A DNA stretch of 64,000 bases. Origin: an uncultured Candidatus Saccharibacteria bacterium (lineage in GTDB: Bacteria; Patescibacteriota; Doudnabacteria; UBA920). A program made the translations under genes and the position numbers. Of the stretch, positions 5,998 to 50,770 are shown one piece after another. The notes beneath the pieces are model-generated. The model was not told the DNA's origin and made no database searches. It saw nothing but the letters and a program-made list of their open reading frames with translations. The stretch covers positions 881-64,880 of the forward strand of contig CAYYQK010000001.1 in the NCBI GenBank assembly GCA_964473815.1. Direction: 5' to 3'. How positions within the stretch are numbered: the stretch's first letter is position 1; every line of letters begins with the position of its first letter.

Positions 5998-8900
5998 ATG
6001 TCTGATATACATATGCAAGACAATCAAACACCGGCTGCTGATGCAGCAAAACCACAAAACACTGGCCCAAATTTCAATGAAATGGAATTGGGTGTTTTGG
6101 AATTTTGGAAGCAAAACCAAATTTTCGAAAAGTCCTTAGAGCAAACAAAAGACAAAGAGCCATTCGTGTTTTATGATGGCCCGCCGTTTGCAACCGGTAC
6201 GCCGCATTATGGCCACATCCTTGGCTCGACACTGAAAGATTTAGTGGGCCGTTATCAAACCATGCGTGGTCGTTATGTGCGCAGGGTTTGGGGATGGGAC
6301 TGTCATGGTTTGCCAATTGAAAATATTATAGAGGCCAAGCTGGGCATCTCCGGAAAGAAACAAATTGAAGAAGTTGGTGTTGCTAAGTTTAACGAAACTT
6401 GTCGCGAAAATGTACTCACTTACGTGAACGAATGGGGTAAGATGGTCGAGCGGATGGGACGCTGGGTAGATTTTGAAAATTCTTACAAAACAATGGACAC
6501 CACTTATCAGGAGAGTGTTTGGTGGGGTGTAAAACAAATTTGGGATAAAGGATTGATTTATCCAGACAACAAAGTTTTGATGTATTGCAGTCGCTGCGAA
6601 ACTCCAGTTTCGAATTTCGAGGTGGCGATGGACAATAGCTACAAAGACGTTACTGAAAATTCGGTATTTGTTAAATTTAAATTGCAGCCTCGCCAGAGAA
6701 TTGTAGATTTTCTAACTGATGAAAATACTTACGCGCTTGCCTGGACAACAACGCCTTGGACCTTACCTGGCAACACGGCTTTGAATATTGGCCCGGATAT
6801 CACTTATGTTTTGGTTGAGCAAGGTGGAAATCACTTTGTGTTGGCAAAAGATCGCATGGAGATTTTGGATCCAGAACAGGGTGAAGTAGAAGTGAAAATG
6901 GAAATTGCCGCACGTTCGCTCGAAGGGTTAAGCTATGAACCATTATACGAAGGGGTTATCGACAATCCGAACAACACTGCTTGGAAAATTTACATTGAAG
7001 ATTATGTAACCGTAGAAGACGGTACAGGCATCGTACACAACGCGGCGATGTACGGAGAAGTCGACTACGAAGCAGCCAAGCAACGAAATTTGCCACGGCA
7101 GCAAATGCTCAACATGCAAGGTGAGTTTATGGATAAAGTTCCAGTAAGCCTGCAAGGAAAGTTTTTCAAGGAAGCTGATCCAATTGTATTGCAGGAACTA
7201 AAAGAAAAAGGAAATGTATACAAAGTGCAGGCATTCACCCACAGTTATCCGCACTGTTGGCGCTGTGGCACCCCGCTATATTATTCTGCGCTGCCTGCGT
7301 GGTTCATCAATATTCAGAAGATAAAACCACAGCTCTTAGAAAACAATGAAAGCATTAATTGGTTCCCTGACCACTTAAAGCACGGCCGGTTCCAAAAGGG
7401 GATTGAAAGCGCGCCAGATTGGAATATTTCTCGCAATCGATACTGGGCAACGGCGTTGCCGTTTTGGAAGTGCTCATCAGGGGATTGTGGAAACGTGGTT
7501 TGTATCGAATCAATCGCAGATCTTAAAGAGAAATCTACAAATTTTGATGAAGTTTACCCTAACTTCGATCCATCTAATTTGAATGCGCTCGATTTGCATC
7601 GTCCTTATGTTGATCAGATTAAATTGAAGTGCGAAAAATGTGCAAACGAAATGTCGCGCGTGCCAGAAGTGATCGATTGTTGGGTGGAATCTGCAAGCAT
7701 GCCTTTTGCGGAATTACACGCGCCATTTGAAAACGAAGAATTATTTAAACAGCGCTACCCAGCTGATTTTGTAGCCGAGTATATTCCACAAACTCGCGCC
7801 TGGTTTTATGTCAGTCACATTGTCGGCTCTATTATAGAGGGTAAGGCACCGTTTAAGAATGTGGCCACAACCGGCACGATTTTGGCAGAAGATGGCAGCA
7901 AAATGTCTAAATCGAAAAATAATTTCCCTGATCCATACAAAGTTATTGAAAGTTTTGGCGTGGACGCAGTTCGTTACTATTTAATGTCTAGTCCTGTCAT
8001 AGGTGGAGAAGATTTAAATTTCTCTGAAAAAGGCGTGGGCGAAGTTAGCCGCAAGCTGTCGATAATTTTATGGAATGTACATAGCTTTTATAGAATGTAC
8101 AAAAAAGATTTGTTGAGCGATGAAGCCGCAAATGGCACTGCACCAACAGTTACTCATGTACTAGATCGATGGGTATTGTCCCGTTTAGCTGCAACACACG
8201 CCCAGGTGACAAAAGCACTCGACACTTACAATACCCCAGCAGCTGCCCGCGCAATCCAGGATTTCGTTACTGAACTTTCAACTTGGTATGTGCGCCGCAA
8301 TCGTGACCGTATTAAAGCCGGTGACGATAGCGCTCAAGAAGCATTAAATGTTTTAGGTTTTGCAATTTCCGAAACTACAAAAATGCTTGCACCATTTATG
8401 CCCTTCTTAGCAGAGCATTTTTACAAAGATTTAACCGGGAAAATTTCAGTGCACTTAGCAAGTTGGACCCCTGTTCGCAATAATGACGCAGAACTGGAAA
8501 CTGCAATGACTCAGCTGCAAACTATTGTAGAAGTCGCGCTACGCCTTCGCAAAGACAATAATCTAAAAGTGCGGCAACCATTGGCAGAACTACAATATAC
8601 TGCAGAAAATTTTGACCCAGGAATGGAACAAATTTTATCTGAAGAGCTAAACGTAAAAAAAGTCACTCATGTTAGCGAATTACTCGCGCGCTCTGGCTGG
8701 GTCAATGTAGAAAACAGTTTGGCATTAGATATAACTTTAACGCCTGAACTGCAAAAGGAAGGCCAAGCCCGCGAACTCGAGCGTCAGGTACAAGACCTGC
8801 GCAAAAAGAGCGGACTAAAAATAGGCGAATTAGTTGACCTCTATTACACAACTCAGGATGAACAACTGGCAGACATCGCCACTAACCTTTTGGACCGTAA

Positions 8901-45433: not shown

Positions 45434-45982
45434 TTAGAATTTTACTTCTACGTTCTGACTTTCTGGGCCGTTGTCATCTATATCGAAGAATGCCCGCTTT
45501 GTAAATCCTAGCATCGATGCAAACAGATTTGTTGGAAAGACTTGAATTTTGGTGTTGAAGTCGCGAACATTGCCGTTGTAGAAACGACGAGCGGCTTGGA
45601 TTTTGTCTTCCGTGTCACGCAGATCATTTTGTAATTGCAAGAAGTTGGTGTTGCTCTTCAGGTCAGGATAATTTTCGGCAACAGCAAACAAAGTTTTCAA
45701 AGTGCCCGACAAAGCGTTTTCATCCTTACTGCGTTCAGCTGGGTTTGTTGCTCCCATTGCCTGAGTACGAGCTTCGGTAACTTTTTGTAAAACACCTGAT
45801 TCCTGAGCAGCGAAACCTTTCACAGTGTTAACTAGATTTGGAATTAAATCGTAACGACGCTTAAGTTGTACTTCAATATCTGCCCAAGATTCATCAACAT
45901 TATTACGAGAACGAATCAGTGAGTTATAGATAAACGCAATAATTGCGATGATCGCTACAATAATTATAAGAAAAATCCACAT
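45434..45982 (-). CDS. lemA: LemA family protein
   Basis: N-terminal TM plus conserved LemA core (SWADIEVQLKRRYDLIPNLV..NY). Confidence 0.8.
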   Translation of the reverse strand: MWIFLIIIVAIIAIIAFIYNSLIRSRNNVDESWADIEVQLKRRYDLIPNLVNTVKGFAAQESGVLQKVTEARTQAMGATNPAERSKDENALSGTLKTLFAVAENYPDLKSNTNFLQLQNDLRDTEDKIQAARRFYNGNVRDFNTKIQVFPTNLFASMLGFTKRAFFDIDDNGPESQNVEVKF

Positions 45983-46210
45983 GTTTTTGAGTTTAATTGT
46001 TAAATTAATGCTTACAAGTGCAGTATATCAAAAGATTGGGGCTGTGGATAGATTGATTGACAGGTAATATATAGAGGGATATAATTTCTCCATATGCAAA
46101 AAAGTTGGCATCAAATTTCCTGCACATACATTAAGGCGACCAAGATTGCCTTTTTGCCGTTGCGCGGGTTTGGCGGTGTCAGTAAGAGAGCATAAGTTCT
46201 AAAAAGAATT

Positions 46211-46250
46211 TAGCTCGCTACTAGGCACAAGCCAGTAGCGAGTTTTATTT
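46211..46250 (+). terminator. rho-independent terminator of an unannotated short plus-strand transcript (candidate sRNA/leader, ~46080-46250)
   Basis: gctcgctact-aggcacaagcc-agtagcgag hairpin followed by TTTTATTTT. No CDS ends here on either strand. Confidence 0.45.
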
Positions 46251-46275
46251 TGCATCAGAAATCGAGAGGAGGAAA

Positions 46276-46500
46276 ATGGATCCGAAGAATCATTCAGATA
46301 AAGCACGGGGAAGAGTCGGGCATGTCTGCGAAACAGACGAAACCCAAAATGTATTAAGGTTGATCGATCACATAGAAGGAGAAAAAACCAGCCATGAGCA
46401 GTTCAGTAGCAGCACCTCTAACAATTCCACCACAACTCATAACCACCCATGCCGCCGATCGAGATTATTGTACGAGATGCGGTCAGCAGGAAGTTTCTAA
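46276..46500 (+). CDS. small ORF (74 aa), S/T-rich C-terminus; candidate precursor peptide
   Basis: Strong RBS GAGGAGG 6 nt upstream of ATG. Overlaps the next small ORF in another frame. Confidence 0.3.
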   Translation: MDPKNHSDKARGRVGHVCETDETQNVLRLIDHIEGEKTSHEQFSSSTSNNSTTTHNHPCRRSRLLYEMRSAGSF

Positions 46501-46624
46501 GCTTACCGAATGCATCCCGTTCATTTGGAACATCGAACAAAAAGAAGCTTCAACAGACAACAGTGAGCCCGTAACTTTTGGAAAGATTCCCAATCCATTC
46601 GAGCAGGGTCCGGCAATTGCCTAA
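46394..46624 (+). CDS. small ORF (76 aa) with CxxC..C; candidate precursor peptide or frameshifted continuation of the previous ORF
   Basis: AAGGAG 12 nt upstream. More protein-like composition than the overlapping frame. Confidence 0.3.
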   Translation: MSSSVAAPLTIPPQLITTHAADRDYCTRCGQQEVSKLTECIPFIWNIEQKEASTDNSEPVTFGKIPNPFEQGPAIA

Positions 46625-46810
46625 CCGCTCAAACATTTTGAGTGAAAGCGTGTGCTTAAGAACCGCACGCTTTCCAACTTTATTAATTTTATAATTCATA
46701 TATGAACATACAAAGCAGCGCACTTACTTATTTTTGGTTTTACTGTCATACCTCCTTTTCGAAAGGGTAGGCATGTTTGCTATGAGTAAGTTTTTTTCGT
46801 AGCCGTCATC

Positions 46811-46838
46811 CCCACCTTTTCGAAGGTGGTTTTATTTT
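46811..46838 (+). terminator. rho-independent terminator/attenuator between small ORFs and the ATP-grasp-like gene
   Basis: ccacctt-ttcg-aaggtgg hairpin followed by TTTTATTTT. A similar weaker hairpin (cctccttttcgaaaggg) lies 60 nt upstream. Confidence 0.55.
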
Positions 46839-46863
46839 AAATTTCGAAGGAGGATCGGGGATA

Positions 46864-47874
46864 ATGTTAGAAGATAATATTCGTAGGCAGTTTGGACCAT
46901 GGTCAGTTCTGTGTAGTAATCACAGGTTGTCCATGACAGAGTTGGAAATAACAGACTTATTGGCGTTTGCAAAACGTTGGCAAGTGGACGGCCAGATGGC
47001 ATTCAGCGAACAGTGCCCGACCTATGTGCAAAATAATTTTGGTATGGCCTCAATTATTCTGCGCTTTGATTACATCATGCAAAACGATCGCGTTCGCGTG
47101 TATGAAATAGAAGAGCGGCCAGCTCTGGCTATTGGGATGTGGGCAAATCCAGATGTTAAATTTGGTTTGCTAAACACTTTTGCCGACCTGTCGGAATATT
47201 CCGGCCGGCCAGTGAAGGTGTTGGTGTCTACTGGTCGAAAAGACAACACTGATGATTGGATGTTGCAAGACATTAGCAAGCAGTCTTTGTTTGCAGAATT
47301 GCATCCCACAGTACCGTGTTCGTGCAATAACGCACTCTATTACGTTCGCTCTCATCGAACTGAAGACTATGTATGGCCAATTGCAGATCGATCGATTACG
47401 ACAATTCGTTCCGAAGGCTCGAAATCGTATGGTCAGGATCTGGGTTTGTGGTCGTATGTATCGAGCGTGGCAGAGTTAGATTTTGACAATCGGTTTGTTT
47501 TGAAGCCGTTGGCTGGATCACGTTCGGAAGAAGTTGTGTTTTGGTCACCGGAAAAAGACCTGCGGGGCCGTTCAACTCGGTCAAAAATAGAAGCCTTTTT
47601 TGAGAGAAATCCAATGGGCGGCTATTTGCAAGAAATGATCATGCCAGAGTCGCACGATTTTCTCGCCGAGAATTATCGGCTTCTGCGCCGCAGCTATGTA
47701 ACTTACTCACCGCTCAGGCTTGAGTGGCAGGTAATTGGAGGGCTTTGGTTGGCCACGAATAATATCAAAATTCACGGCACCCCTGAAGCAATAACTGGTG
47801 TAATTGTTAACTCCGATTACACGCAAGACGGGCAGGCAAAATCTGCCCCTCCCTTTTTAAAATTAATTTTATAA
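46864..47874 (+). CDS. ATP-grasp-like domain protein (uncertain), hypothetical
   Basis: AGGAGG RBS. C-terminal segment FVLKPLAGSRSEEVVFW..YLQEMIMPE resembles the ATP-grasp nucleotide-binding core. No firm family assignment. Confidence 0.4.
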   Translation: MLEDNIRRQFGPWSVLCSNHRLSMTELEITDLLAFAKRWQVDGQMAFSEQCPTYVQNNFGMASIILRFDYIMQNDRVRVYEIEERPALAIGMWANPDVKFGLLNTFADLSEYSGRPVKVLVSTGRKDNTDDWMLQDISKQSLFAELHPTVPCSCNNALYYVRSHRTEDYVWPIADRSITTIRSEGSKSYGQDLGLWSYVSSVAELDFDNRFVLKPLAGSRSEEVVFWSPEKDLRGRSTRSKIEAFFERNPMGGYLQEMIMPESHDFLAENYRLLRRSYVTYSPLRLEWQVIGGLWLATNNIKIHGTPEAITGVIVNSDYTQDGQAKSAPPFLKLIL

Positions 47875-47876
47875 AA

Positions 47877-48578
47877 ATGTGCAGATTAATAGGAATTAAA
47901 GGATACTCCAATCTTGAATTGGAGAATCGGTCAAAAATATTAACTGAGTTTTTTGATTTATCAAAAAATGGTTGTGTTCCAAAAACTATTTCTCAAGGAC
48001 ACAGCGACGGTTACGGTATTGTCGCTTATAAAAATGGTTCAATAATTTTTTATTATCGTAATTCACTGCCTCCGTATCAGGATAAAAATTTTCCCAGTAT
48101 TTTAAACTCTCTTTCAACTTTGAATGCAGATTTTGTTATGGGTCATTTACGTAAAGCAACAAAAGGTGAAAACCATGCAACGAATAATCAACCTTTTATT
48201 TTGAGTGATAATAGTTTCGGTACAAATGGAACTGTTCACTTTCCTTCTTTGAGAGATGGAGAAAATGATTCCAGATTGTTATTTGAAAAGTTGTTAAATG
48301 AAAACGATGTTGAGAAGACTTTGGCGTCACTATCAACAATCGATTATACCTCAGCGACTTTGTTACTGTTTGATGGCAAAGAATTTACGGCAGCACGTTG
48401 GTTTAACGAGGATAATTTGAATGCGCAAAAATTTGATTTTAATTGTTACTACACATTGTTCGTTACTGGTGGCGATAAAATCGAAATAATTTCATCTGAA
48501 ATTACCGAAAGTATCAAGAATTTGAATTTAGAATCACGACTATTAGAAAACTATTCTATATATAAAACAAGTTTTTAG
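47877..48578 (+). CDS. class-II glutamine amidotransferase / Ntn-hydrolase-like protein (YafJ/EgtC-like)
   Basis: N-terminal nucleophile MC(R) and GHLRKATKG..NNQPF match GATase-II signatures. Stand-alone 233-aa domain. Confidence 0.6.
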   Translation: MCRLIGIKGYSNLELENRSKILTEFFDLSKNGCVPKTISQGHSDGYGIVAYKNGSIIFYYRNSLPPYQDKNFPSILNSLSTLNADFVMGHLRKATKGENHATNNQPFILSDNSFGTNGTVHFPSLRDGENDSRLLFEKLLNENDVEKTLASLSTIDYTSATLLLFDGKEFTAARWFNEDNLNAQKFDFNCYYTLFVTGGDKIEIISSEITESIKNLNLESRLLENYSIYKTSF

Positions 48579-48616
48579 TGCTTTTCTTTTTGGCTGATTT
48601 TCTCTATAATAAGCCT

Positions 48617-48898
48617 ATGTTAAGCGAAGAAGAAGTAAAAAAAGTGGCCGGAATGGCACGAATTGCTCTGACAGACGAAGAGGTGAAAAAATTCCAAAAG
48701 GATCTTTCGTCAGTTTTGGATTACGTTGCTGAACTGCAACAAGTCGACACTGAAGGTTTGGAGATCGTCTCGAGTGTGACTGGTTTGGAAAATGTGGAGC
48801 GTTTAGATGAGCCACGTTTGATTGACTATCAGGAAGAGATTATGGCCAACGCACCAGACCGCAAAGATCGTTACTATAAAGTGAAATCAATTTTGTAA
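48617..48898 (+). CDS. gatC: Asp/Glu-tRNA amidotransferase subunit C
   Basis: GatC pattern (EEVKKVAGMARIALTDEE..LSSVLDYV..L..VDT). Start set at Met14 of the listed ORF. TATAAT 7 nt upstream. Confidence 0.82.
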   Translation: MLSEEEVKKVAGMARIALTDEEVKKFQKDLSSVLDYVAELQQVDTEGLEIVSSVTGLENVERLDEPRLIDYQEEIMANAPDRKDRYYKVKSIL

Positions 48899-50410: not shown

Positions 50411-50770
50411 ATGTTGGATATGGAAAAGTACGAACCAGGTTCATGGAGAAATGAAGAACCTTATTCGAATCCCGACAATAAATCTTTAAGTGATCTTAGA
50501 ACAGAACTTGATCAGGGTTTAAAAAATCTAGAAGATAATTTCCCCGGTTTAGATATATACAAAGATAATATGGATGAAAAAATCTCTGATTGGTCAGAAG
50601 ACCAACAGCAAACCTTTAAAGACATAAGTTATGAAATTATGAATAAAATTCATATTATCTTTTCTTCCAATCTAACTGATAATGAAAATGAGAATGAATA
50701 TTATTCCACACTAAAAGAATTGGATGATAAATTAAATGAGTGGATAACTAGAATATCAATTTTGAAATAA
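50411..50770 (+). CDS. hypothetical acidic protein inserted between gatA and gatB
   Basis: 119 aa, D/E/N-rich, no TM. Tightly packed (2-nt gap after gatA, 1-nt overlap with gatB). Confidence 0.5.
   Translation: MLDMEKYEPGSWRNEEPYSNPDNKSLSDLRTELDQGLKNLEDNFPGLDIYKDNMDEKISDWSEDQQQTFKDISYEIMNKIHIIFSSNLTDNENENEYYSTLKELDDKLNEWITRISILK

Follow-up and report, generated by a model that had tools for sequence, protein, structure and literature searches.

A predicted leader-peptide attenuator upstream of a putative ATP-grasp ligase and amidohydrolase gene pair in a Patescibacterium

Genes and features of the locus

The stretch analyzed here, referred to as the window, comprises 64,000 nucleotides (nt) of contig CAYYQK010000001.1 (assembly GCA_964473815.1) from an uncultured Candidatus Saccharibacteria bacterium. 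Its subject is a pair of adjacent genes, encoding a putative ATP-grasp ligase of 336 amino acids (aa) and an amidohydrolase of 233 aa, together with the leader that precedes them. A clpC-like gene (- strand), recX (+) and lemA (-, 45434-45982) are followed by an 881-nt intergenic stretch, beyond which lie the 336-aa open reading frame (ORF; 46864-47874), the 233-aa ORF (47877-48578), gatC (48617-48898), gatA, a 119-aa ORF and gatB. An original prediction had interpreted this region as a candidate peptide-modification operon that combined a small RNA (sRNA) or leader, two small precursor ORFs, twin hairpins and two enzyme genes; the sequence elements it listed were all found where it had placed them. 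The features of the ligase unit are as follows, where L numbers denote related loci and uORF an upstream ORF.

46690-46695 (+): TATAAT box 6 nt 5' of the uORF-B start (leaderless geometry), with a weak -35 region; TTGACA-17-TATTAT/TATGAT in the same place in L010, L011 and L029
46702-46770 (+): uORF-B, predicted leader peptide MNIQSSALTYFWFYCHTSFSKG, 22 codons (30-36 codons in relatives)
46751-46775 (+): hairpin 1, a duplex of attenuator regions 1 (46751-46759) and 2 (46760-46775)
46807-46838 (+): predicted terminator, formed by attenuator regions 3 (46807-46822) and 4 (46823-46829) plus a T-run (terminator scan)
46847-46853 (+): Shine-Dalgarno (SD) sequence AAGGAGG of the ligase gene, kept in all relatives and complementary to region 1 (CCTCCTT)
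46864-47874 (+): 336-aa circularly permuted ATP-grasp ligase of an undescribed family, predicted from an AlphaFold2 model, conserved residues and fold comparison
47877-48578 (+): 233-aa stand-alone, EgtC-like N-terminal nucleophile (Ntn) amidohydrolase with a class-II glutamine amidotransferase (GATase) fold, identified by hidden Markov model (HMM) match, fold and invariant residues

The region is best explained as two tandem units, in each of which a short leaderless ORF is followed by an intrinsic terminator and then by a gene with an SD. The downstream unit (46690-48578) is best explained as a two-gene operon, in which an attenuator controls the ligase and the amidohydrolase. The scarcity of consensus SDs in the window, already pointed out in the original prediction, is pronounced: among 47 ORFs of at least 150 aa, 44 lack an SD-like motif within 22 nt upstream, and the sole AGGAGG lies 5' of the 336-aa gene. 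Of the 47, 8 have a TATAAT-like box no more than 18 nt from the ATG, a sign that leaderless or non-SD initiation may be widespread. Strong SDs are few in the window and are positioned directly 3' of uORF-terminator leaders.

The ligase family and its hydrolase partners

The 336-aa protein had been described as ATP-grasp-like, which is correct at the level of the fold. No match to the protein was found in Pfam or NCBIfam at E≤1 (including 0 ATP-grasp matches in Pfam) or in PDB sequence and profile searches, and none of 45 diverse family members matched Pfam, the GspS-synthetase and circularly permuted ATP-grasp models included. A word-seeded search of 5.8 billion proteins yielded 12 relatives, and a profile search of 1.84 billion cluster representatives yielded 421 clusters at E≤1e-3 (362 at E≤1e-10), mostly single-domain proteins of ~300 aa. 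In the AlphaFold2 model (predicted local distance difference test score [pLDDT], 84.4; predicted template modeling score [pTM], 0.86), the protein shows the fold with an ATP-binding Lys and an acidic Mg-binding motif by which the ATP-grasp superfamily is recognized. Invariant or near-invariant residues comprise R67-x-D69 and E81-x-E83-x-R85-P86 near the N terminus and K187, K214-P215 (FVLKP) and Q256 further on. The R-x-D...E-x-(N/E) segment lies N-terminal to the K-containing ATP-binding segment, the order that marks the circularly permuted group of GspS, eukaryotic glutathione synthetase and 3n6x. The profile match to DcsG was weak and nonsignificant, with the two ATP-grasp segments aligned in swapped order, which is consistent with circular permutation. 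The top structural neighbor of the model is 3n6x, and the characterized close structural relatives all join small molecules via an acyl-phosphate (PMC12568646). The protein belongs to no described sequence family, is recognizable by fold only and is not of the type that makes ribosomally synthesized and posttranslationally modified peptides (RiPPs). Some homologs carry N-terminal extensions of ~120-180 aa, of two conserved types and without a Pfam match (L016 4570-5016, L022 5500-6000, L023 5569-6000; P0017, P0027, P0038, P0048); one type bears the motif ...PRN...FTW...PTLFDLL.MP.

The 233-aa ORF starts with Met-Cys, 2 nt past the stop codon of the 336-aa ORF. The encoded protein matched Pfam GATase_4 with 26.5 bits (cutoff, 23), and its best NCBIfam match was EgtC (TIGR03442), at 44.7 bits against an equivalog cutoff of 218.65. 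There are no egt genes at the locus, and the protein is not an EgtC equivalog by either score or context. EgtC was also the best structural match, with 20% sequence identity. Across 7 orthologs, the MCR start, which places a Cys nucleophile directly after Met1, is invariant, as are R92, N103, N117-G118 and D131-S132. From motif position, the set R92, N103, N117-G118 and D131 presumably matches PurF R73/N101/D127, with C2 as the nucleophile and the others holding the glutamine or gamma-glutamyl moiety. The N-terminal Cys, the family HMM match and the fold together mark a class-II (Ntn) glutamine amidotransferase domain and, at the level of the fold, bear out the Ntn/GATase-II hydrolase originally proposed.

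Two further observations concern the junction of the genes. The ligase gene (46860-47850) has a GC content of ~46% and the hydrolase gene (47850-48600) one of ~32%, a sharp drop for two genes that lie 2 nt apart. A terminator-like hairpin at 47830-47857 (GGGCAGGCAAAATCTGCCC then CTCCCTTTTT) is located toward the end of the ligase ORF, in the part that encodes a C-terminal tail of low model confidence, and shortly 5' of the hydrolase start; it could tune the ligase:hydrolase ratio or be a chance occurrence.

To survey the neighborhoods, one genome per GTDB species was taken, giving 16 ligase loci whose titles are mostly Patescibacteria (Saccharibacteria, Paceibacterota, Wildermuth-, Uhr- and Spechtbacterales) or unclassified "bacterium." An amidohydrolase gene directly adjoins the ligase gene in all 16, so that the ligase and the hydrolase form a conserved pair, as had been proposed. 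The partners are of four kinds:

EgtC-like GATase_4, downstream: L013, L014, L015, L017 (4 loci)
ArgE/DapE-like M20, downstream: L016, L018-L023, L026, L028 (9 loci)
PepT-like M20, upstream: L024, L025 (2 loci)
Class-I GATase, downstream: L027 (1 locus)

Three unrelated hydrolase folds thus interchange beside the same ligase. Because the Ntn enzyme of the window is swapped for an M20 enzyme or a class-I GATase in other Patescibacteria, this interchange argues that the pair has a conserved function in the formation and cleavage of an amide. Enzymes of the EgtC, class-I GATase/C26 and ArgE/DapE/LysK types have one bond class in common, the gamma-glutamyl or N-acyl-amino-acid amide. A small molecule is the most likely substrate and, since all three hydrolase families cleave such bonds, a bond of the gamma-glutamyl or N-acyl-amino-acid type is the best guess.

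The ligase leader, the upstream cassette and the gatCAB neighbor

The two hairpins upstream of the ligase gene had been interpreted as an attenuator that sets the stoichiometry of precursor and enzymes. Hairpin 1 has the sequence cctccttttcgaaaggg (46751-46767), and hairpin 2 the sequence ccaccttttcgaaggtgg (46812-46829), followed by a T-run (46830-46838) and scored as a terminator by the scan. Region 2 is complementary to both region 1 and region 3, and region 3 also pairs with region 4, which is why the two hairpins resemble each other. In the window, the duplex energies are -8.0 (1:2), -14.8 (2:3) and -9.7 kcal/mol (3:4), and the unconstrained minimum-free-energy fold of the full leader is the 2:3 antiterminator. 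The leader thus has the helix set of a trp-type attenuator, in which 1:2, 2:3 and 3:4 exclude one another, together with the U-tract.

The length of the spacer 5' of the ligase gene varies from 881 nt in the window to 250 nt in L010 and L011 and ~430 nt in L003. Conserved in all close relatives are its last ~165 nt, which comprise the promoter (with TATAAT only in the window), the ATG, the short ORF, hairpin 1, the terminator, AAGGAGG and the ligase ATG. The uORF ATG lies 6 to 10 nt 3' of the -10 box in these relatives. The peptides encoded by uORF-B are MNKVNLLSVSFWHYFTSFFEKVGMFAMSQK in L010 and L011, MNKINLLTVSFWHYFTSFFERVGMFAMSKK in L029 and MIFKITATIHHFWFYSCAFIVERVGMFAVRDDVISS in L003; among the versions of equal length, the variable sites fall 4/2/7 at codon positions 1/2/3, a third-position bias.

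The helices were compared between leaders by per-sequence duplex energies; the MAFFT alignment put the helices out of register, so column covariation counts were dropped. The 2:3 duplexes range from -12.7 to -29.6 kcal/mol, with z-scores down to -9.7 relative to shuffled region 2. The same layout, a uORF with 1:2, 2:3 and 3:4 helices before the ligase gene, was found in four leader groups of unrelated sequence. In addition to group 1, these are group 2, a second Saccharibacteria group (L014, L015 and L017; uORFs MN.FST..); the L027 leader, whose ligase has a class-I GATase partner (uORF MKKIKVNHNVSFLYWMALKGRLAFFA; 2:3, -17.9 kcal/mol); and the L028 leader, with an M20 partner (uORF MKSINQKQSLGLLLGLLSKPQAGKVFGVIK; 2:3, -18.5 kcal/mol; then AGGAG and the ligase ATG). 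In L015, for example, the 2:3 duplex has an energy of -29.6 kcal/mol (z = -9.7); inspected by eye, ~20 of its 22 positions are complementary. At the sequence level, a short ORF that overlaps region 1/2 is present and conserved in all four groups, and an SD and ATG follow within 25 nt of the T-run in each. The relatedness of the two hairpins is thus not due to chance: it is kept in the relatives and recurs in leader groups of unrelated sequence.

No tandem codons of a single regulatory amino acid occur where the ribosome would stall on the leader peptides of the four groups; in Saccharibacteria, the residues there are a mixture of F, W, Y, H and M. The codons placed to mask region 1 are F-W-F-Y-C-H in the window and W-H-Y-F, M-H-M-F-W and L-Y-W-M in other Saccharibacteria, and they are Leu-rich in L028. 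Judged from its sequence, the ligase leader is arranged like a leader-peptide attenuator of the trp type, in which the 2:3 antiterminator is conserved, and not like a fixed partial terminator between precursor and enzymes. A T-box leader, considered on account of the nearby gatCAB and aminoacyl-tRNA synthetase (aaRS) genes, was ruled out by the absence of a T-box match in an Rfam run at E≤10 over 45900-46950.

Further upstream, the intergenic stretch of the window carries a second set of features.

46057-46085 (+): sigma-70 promoter TTGACA-17-TATAAT, 12/12 consensus match, kept in L003, L010 and L034
46094-46195 (+): uORF-A, a predicted leaderless 33-codon ORF within the "sRNA" (MQKSWHQISCTYIKATKIAFLPLRGFGGVSKRA), intact in the window, L003, L010 and L034
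46212-46251 (+): strong intrinsic terminator 3' of uORF-A, its stem kept with compensatory changes in 4 genomes
46276-46500 (+): 74-aa ORF, with GAGGAGG at 46266-46272 and a spacer to the ATG of just 3 nt
46394-46624 (+): 76-aa ORF in a different frame, separated by a 12-nt spacer from AAGGAG (46376-46381)
46646-46672 (+): 9-bp hairpin 3' of the 76-aa ORF with a poor T-run, read from the sequence and unflagged by the terminator scan; it may mark the end of the small-ORF cassette

The sRNA or leader element recognized in the original prediction is real, with a perfect promoter, a strong terminator at ~46212-46251 and a fold z-score of -5.3. It is not a simple noncoding RNA, because it holds a conserved leaderless ORF of 30 to 33 codons. 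No Rfam family was found for the 46092-46251 element or for the leader, either at the gathering score across the whole window or at E≤10 over 45900-46950, where only noise was returned. The start of uORF-A is a conserved CATATG, with the ATG 8 nt past the TATAAT box; all copies end in R-A-stop, 17 to 20 nt 5' of the terminator, and their lengths differ by multiples of 3. The peptides are MKSIWHHITYFCTKAVTFAFLRLEWARARA in L003, MKSIWNNISCTITKAIRIAFLLLENSRLRA in L010 and MNLYLHTTCANITKAIRFAFLPFAFSGVRYRA in L034, and L037 retains the C-terminal part, the rest being cut by the contig end. The region of codons 4 to 6 resembles the 5' arm of the terminator (region 1 resembling region 3), and the intervening strand can pair with either (L010, CTATCTGGAA versus GCTATCTGGAA; window, AGTTGGCA versus ACTAGGCA). 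The uORF-A element may act as a further attenuator built like that of the ligase; alternatively, it may encode a small protein and carry its own terminator, followed by a hypervariable cassette.

From promoter to terminator, the element (46057-46251 in the window) is conserved in L003 (5644-5832), L010/L013 (L010 5655-5850), L034 (~7945-8150, - strand) and L037, always at the lemA/gatCAB locus. Its position relative to the enzyme genes varies: in the window and L003 it precedes the ligase leader, L010 has it between the hydrolase gene and gatC, and in L034, which lacks both ligase and hydrolase, it is directly flanked by lemA and gatCAB. In 4 of 5 genomes, one to three SD-led ORFs come after the terminator; these ORFs, those of L010, L034 and L037 included, bear no sequence relation to one another from genome to genome. 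The complete ones encode 67 to 79 aa; the ORF of L037 is cut by the contig end. A BLASTP and tblastn comparison of the small ORFs between genomes gave no match.

The 74- and 76-aa ORFs had been proposed as precursors for the two enzymes, and this proposal fails on conservation, by the measure that the original prediction itself had set. Both are absent from the closest relatives (L003, L010, L011, L029 and L030), neither has a Pfam match, and tblastn detected neither in any related locus. The search of 5.8 billion proteins used a 116-aa query in which the two ORFs were fused through a guessed frameshift in an A-run; the 76-aa ORF matched its own cluster only, and no cluster with the 74-aa ORF was recovered. 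In codon usage, only the 76-aa frame has a positive score, and that a weak one. Nor do the small ORFs belong to the enzyme operon, since the cassette occurs without the enzymes in L034 and 3' of them in L010. The same positions, together with the conserved ORF that it holds, ruled out the "sRNA" as a riboswitch of the ligase operon, and a mobile element was rejected for the insert because no repeats or further copies were found in the window or the loci. The promoter, uORF-A and terminator with the 74- and 76-aa ORFs are thus a separate, fast-evolving cassette of the lemA-gatCAB locus that supplies no precursor to the enzymes.

On the other side of the pair, the placement directly upstream of gatCAB is accurate as to position, with gatC starting at 48617. 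However, this adjacency is found only in the window's own clade, a 577-nt gap intervenes in L010, and gatC has a conserved TTCTCTATAAT box of its own 6 nt 5' of the ATG, which also precedes gatC in L010 and L034. On these grounds gatCAB was rejected as a member of the operon and appears to be an independent neighbor with its own promoter. An AT-rich ORF of variable size (29% GC in the window) lies between gatA and gatB in the window (50411-50770, 119 aa), L003 (9534-10025, 163 aa) and L034 (157 aa), and is absent from L010, where gatA and gatB abut; no Pfam match is on record for it, and tblastn found no match in other loci. A ligase homolog lies directly 3' of an aaRS gene in two distant loci (L004 4283-5722, class-II tRNA-synt_2; L023 3789-5219, MetRS). 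Together with the gatCAB adjacency, this may reflect a weak recurring link to tRNA charging, or coincidence.

Interpretation and comparison with known systems

The reading favored here, with a probability of roughly 0.55, is an attenuator-controlled pair that forms and cleaves an amide of a small molecule, probably of the gamma-glutamyl or N-acyl type. By analogy with its structural relatives, the ligase would proceed at the expense of ATP through an acyl-phosphate to the amide, releasing ADP and Pi. If uORF-B is not translated, hairpin 1:2 would form, followed by terminator 3:4, and transcription would stop; if a ribosome reads uORF-B to its stop codon, region 2 would be covered, 3:4 would again form, and transcription would likewise stop. 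A ribosome that stalls on the hydrophobic and aromatic codons (F-W-F-Y-C-H) just before or in region 1 would leave region 2 free for the 2:3 antiterminator, allowing RNA polymerase to read into the SD-led ligase gene.

Several points weigh against this reading. Compared with its relatives, uORF-B of the window is frame-shifted: a T4 run (46757-46760) stands where L029 and L030 have T5, which puts the ...ERVGMFAMS... codons out of frame, while the downstream nucleotides are still conserved; the window sequence is identical in two independent assemblies. The shuffle z-scores of the 2:3 duplex in group 1 are just -1.7 to -2.6. There is no single-codon run in the leader peptides, and Trp and His are frequent but not universal, L028 being Leu-rich. 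Leaderless initiation and termination are read from sequence geometry, and the uORF-B promoter of the window has no good -35 region. On the enzyme side, no hydrolase gene adjoins the ligase in two other members of the family (the L004 type and, with 70% GC, L012). The substrate is a guess, with no sequence-level link to any characterized ligase, and the adjacency of the genes would fit action on the same bond, on successive steps or as a complex.

The main rival, itself unlikely, is a two-subunit glutamine-dependent amidotransferase, in which the GATase-fold subunit would hydrolyze glutamine and feed ammonia to the ATP-grasp subunit for amidation of an acyl-phosphate, for example in the conversion of Asp to Asn or on a cell-wall precursor, by analogy with MurT/GatD. 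The two GATase-type partners fit such an enzyme, but 11 of the 16 partner hydrolases are M20 metallopeptidases, not glutaminases; EgtC, the best structural match, is a stand-alone hydrolase and is not known as an ammonia donor, and the adjacency of gatCAB is clade-specific. It would be improbable that the hairpins are unrelated, one having arisen by chance and the other serving simply to terminate the upstream small-ORF cassette, with the enzymes expressed constitutively from a downstream promoter. A weak promoter-like match over 46836-46865 and the modest group-1 z-scores speak for this; yet L010, L011 and L029 have the same leader with a consensus promoter directly upstream and no cassette, and the architecture, with its closely spaced SD and ATG, recurs in four groups of unrelated sequence.

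Quite improbable, too, is that the uORF-B peptide or another protein is the substrate of the ligase, in a RiPP-like system or one of C-terminal or side-chain tagging with the hydrolase as remover, the terminator simply lowering enzyme expression. The amino acids of uORF-B are conserved within groups, the ORF lies directly 5' of the ligase with the terminator between, and the ATP-grasp enzymes RimK and LysX do modify proteins. However, no motif is common to the peptides of the four leader groups, several M20-linked loci (L018, L020 and L026) have no room for a uORF, the close structural relatives are all small-molecule ligases, and the conserved 2:3 complementarity is predicted by a regulatory but not by a substrate role. 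The RiPP-like or peptide-tagging operon of the original prediction, with the 74- and 76-aa ORFs as precursors and the hairpins setting stoichiometry, is very improbable. Its ATP-grasp fold and Ntn hydrolase are real, the small ORFs bear SDs that are otherwise rare, and 3n6x is of the glutathione-synthetase-like type found in Anbu operons, for which tagging has been proposed without confirmation; it fails through the lack of conservation of the two ORFs. An attractive RiPP annotation of the locus is thereby corrected.

Tiny genomes with very few biosynthetic enzymes are typical of Patescibacteria (the candidate phyla radiation, CPR), and a conserved, ATP-consuming ligase in such genomes therefore deserves attention. 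Its ~420 clusters, its pairing with a hydrolase and its dedicated attenuation point to a metabolic or salvage step that is likely important to a host-dependent lifestyle, and the swapping of partners among three unrelated amidohydrolase folds offers a comparative-genomic handle on its function. In a wider and distinctly doubtful version, the permuted mini-ligase, with an amidohydrolase that may be of the Ntn, M20 or class-I GATase kind, would be an undescribed conjugation/deconjugation cycle, mostly of Patescibacteria, that could attach a gamma-glutamyl-type tag to amino acids, to precursors of the cell wall or even to proteins and is switched on when ribosomes stall at hydrophobic or aromatic codons. 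If true, this would be a new starvation response of ultra-small epibiotic bacteria, operated by leaderless-uORF attenuators in a nearly SD-free genome. Nothing was found in the literature on leader-peptide attenuation with leaderless uORFs in Patescibacteria, and the ligase leader would be, to our knowledge, the first clear sequence-level case of trp-type attenuation of this kind in the phylum.

Among known systems, the graspetide (microviridin-type) RiPP systems share with the locus an ATP-grasp enzyme beside small ORFs; they differ in that no conserved precursor adjoins the ligase, which is not of the MdnB/C-PsnB-CdnC type. The structure 3n6x represents the glutathione-synthetase-like ATP-grasp proteins of the type found in Anbu operons, which combine ATP-grasp, alpha-E, transglutaminase-like and Anbu genes. 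Protein tagging has been proposed for Anbu operons, without confirmation (PMC6376114). The ligase locus is not of this type, as alpha-E, transglutaminase-like and Anbu genes do not accompany the ATP-grasp gene. Glutathionylspermidine synthetase/amidase (GspS) and the peptide-spermidine ligases YgiC/YjfC of E. coli have no detectable sequence similarity to the ligase family, whose members measure ~300-336 aa, compared with chains of 368 aa for YgiC and 587 aa for GspS. The amidase of GspS has a CHAP fold, whereas the hydrolase of the ligase module is encoded by a separate gene and has a different fold (Ntn, M20 or class-I GATase). From eukaryotic-type glutathione/homoglutathione synthetase and the fungal E-64 ligase Cp1B, the ligase is set apart by being ~150 residues shorter, by its Patescibacteria lineage and by another operon context. 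The 233-aa protein differs from EgtC and the YafJ-type stand-alone class-II GATases in its score (44.7 versus 218.65 bits), its 20% identity and a locus free of egtA, egtB and egtD.

The pairing of the ligase with an ArgE/DapE/LysK-family M20 hydrolase in most CPR relatives, with weak "[LysW]-lysine hydrolase" matches, resembles the LysX/ArgX-LysK systems, in which the gamma-glutamyl amide made by LysX is cleaved by LysK; the module has neither a LysW-like carrier with a C-terminal Glu nor a RimK-type ligase. Finally, the predicted ligase leader shares with the trp, leu, pheA and his attenuators of Proteobacteria a short ORF over region 1/2, helices 1:2, 2:3 and 3:4 that exclude one another, and a U-tract terminator that directly precedes the first structural gene. 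It differs from these trp-type attenuators in its apparently leaderless ORF, with TATAAT 6 to 11 nt 5' of the ATG, the lack of a single-codon run, its Patescibacterium host and a target that is not an amino-acid biosynthetic operon.

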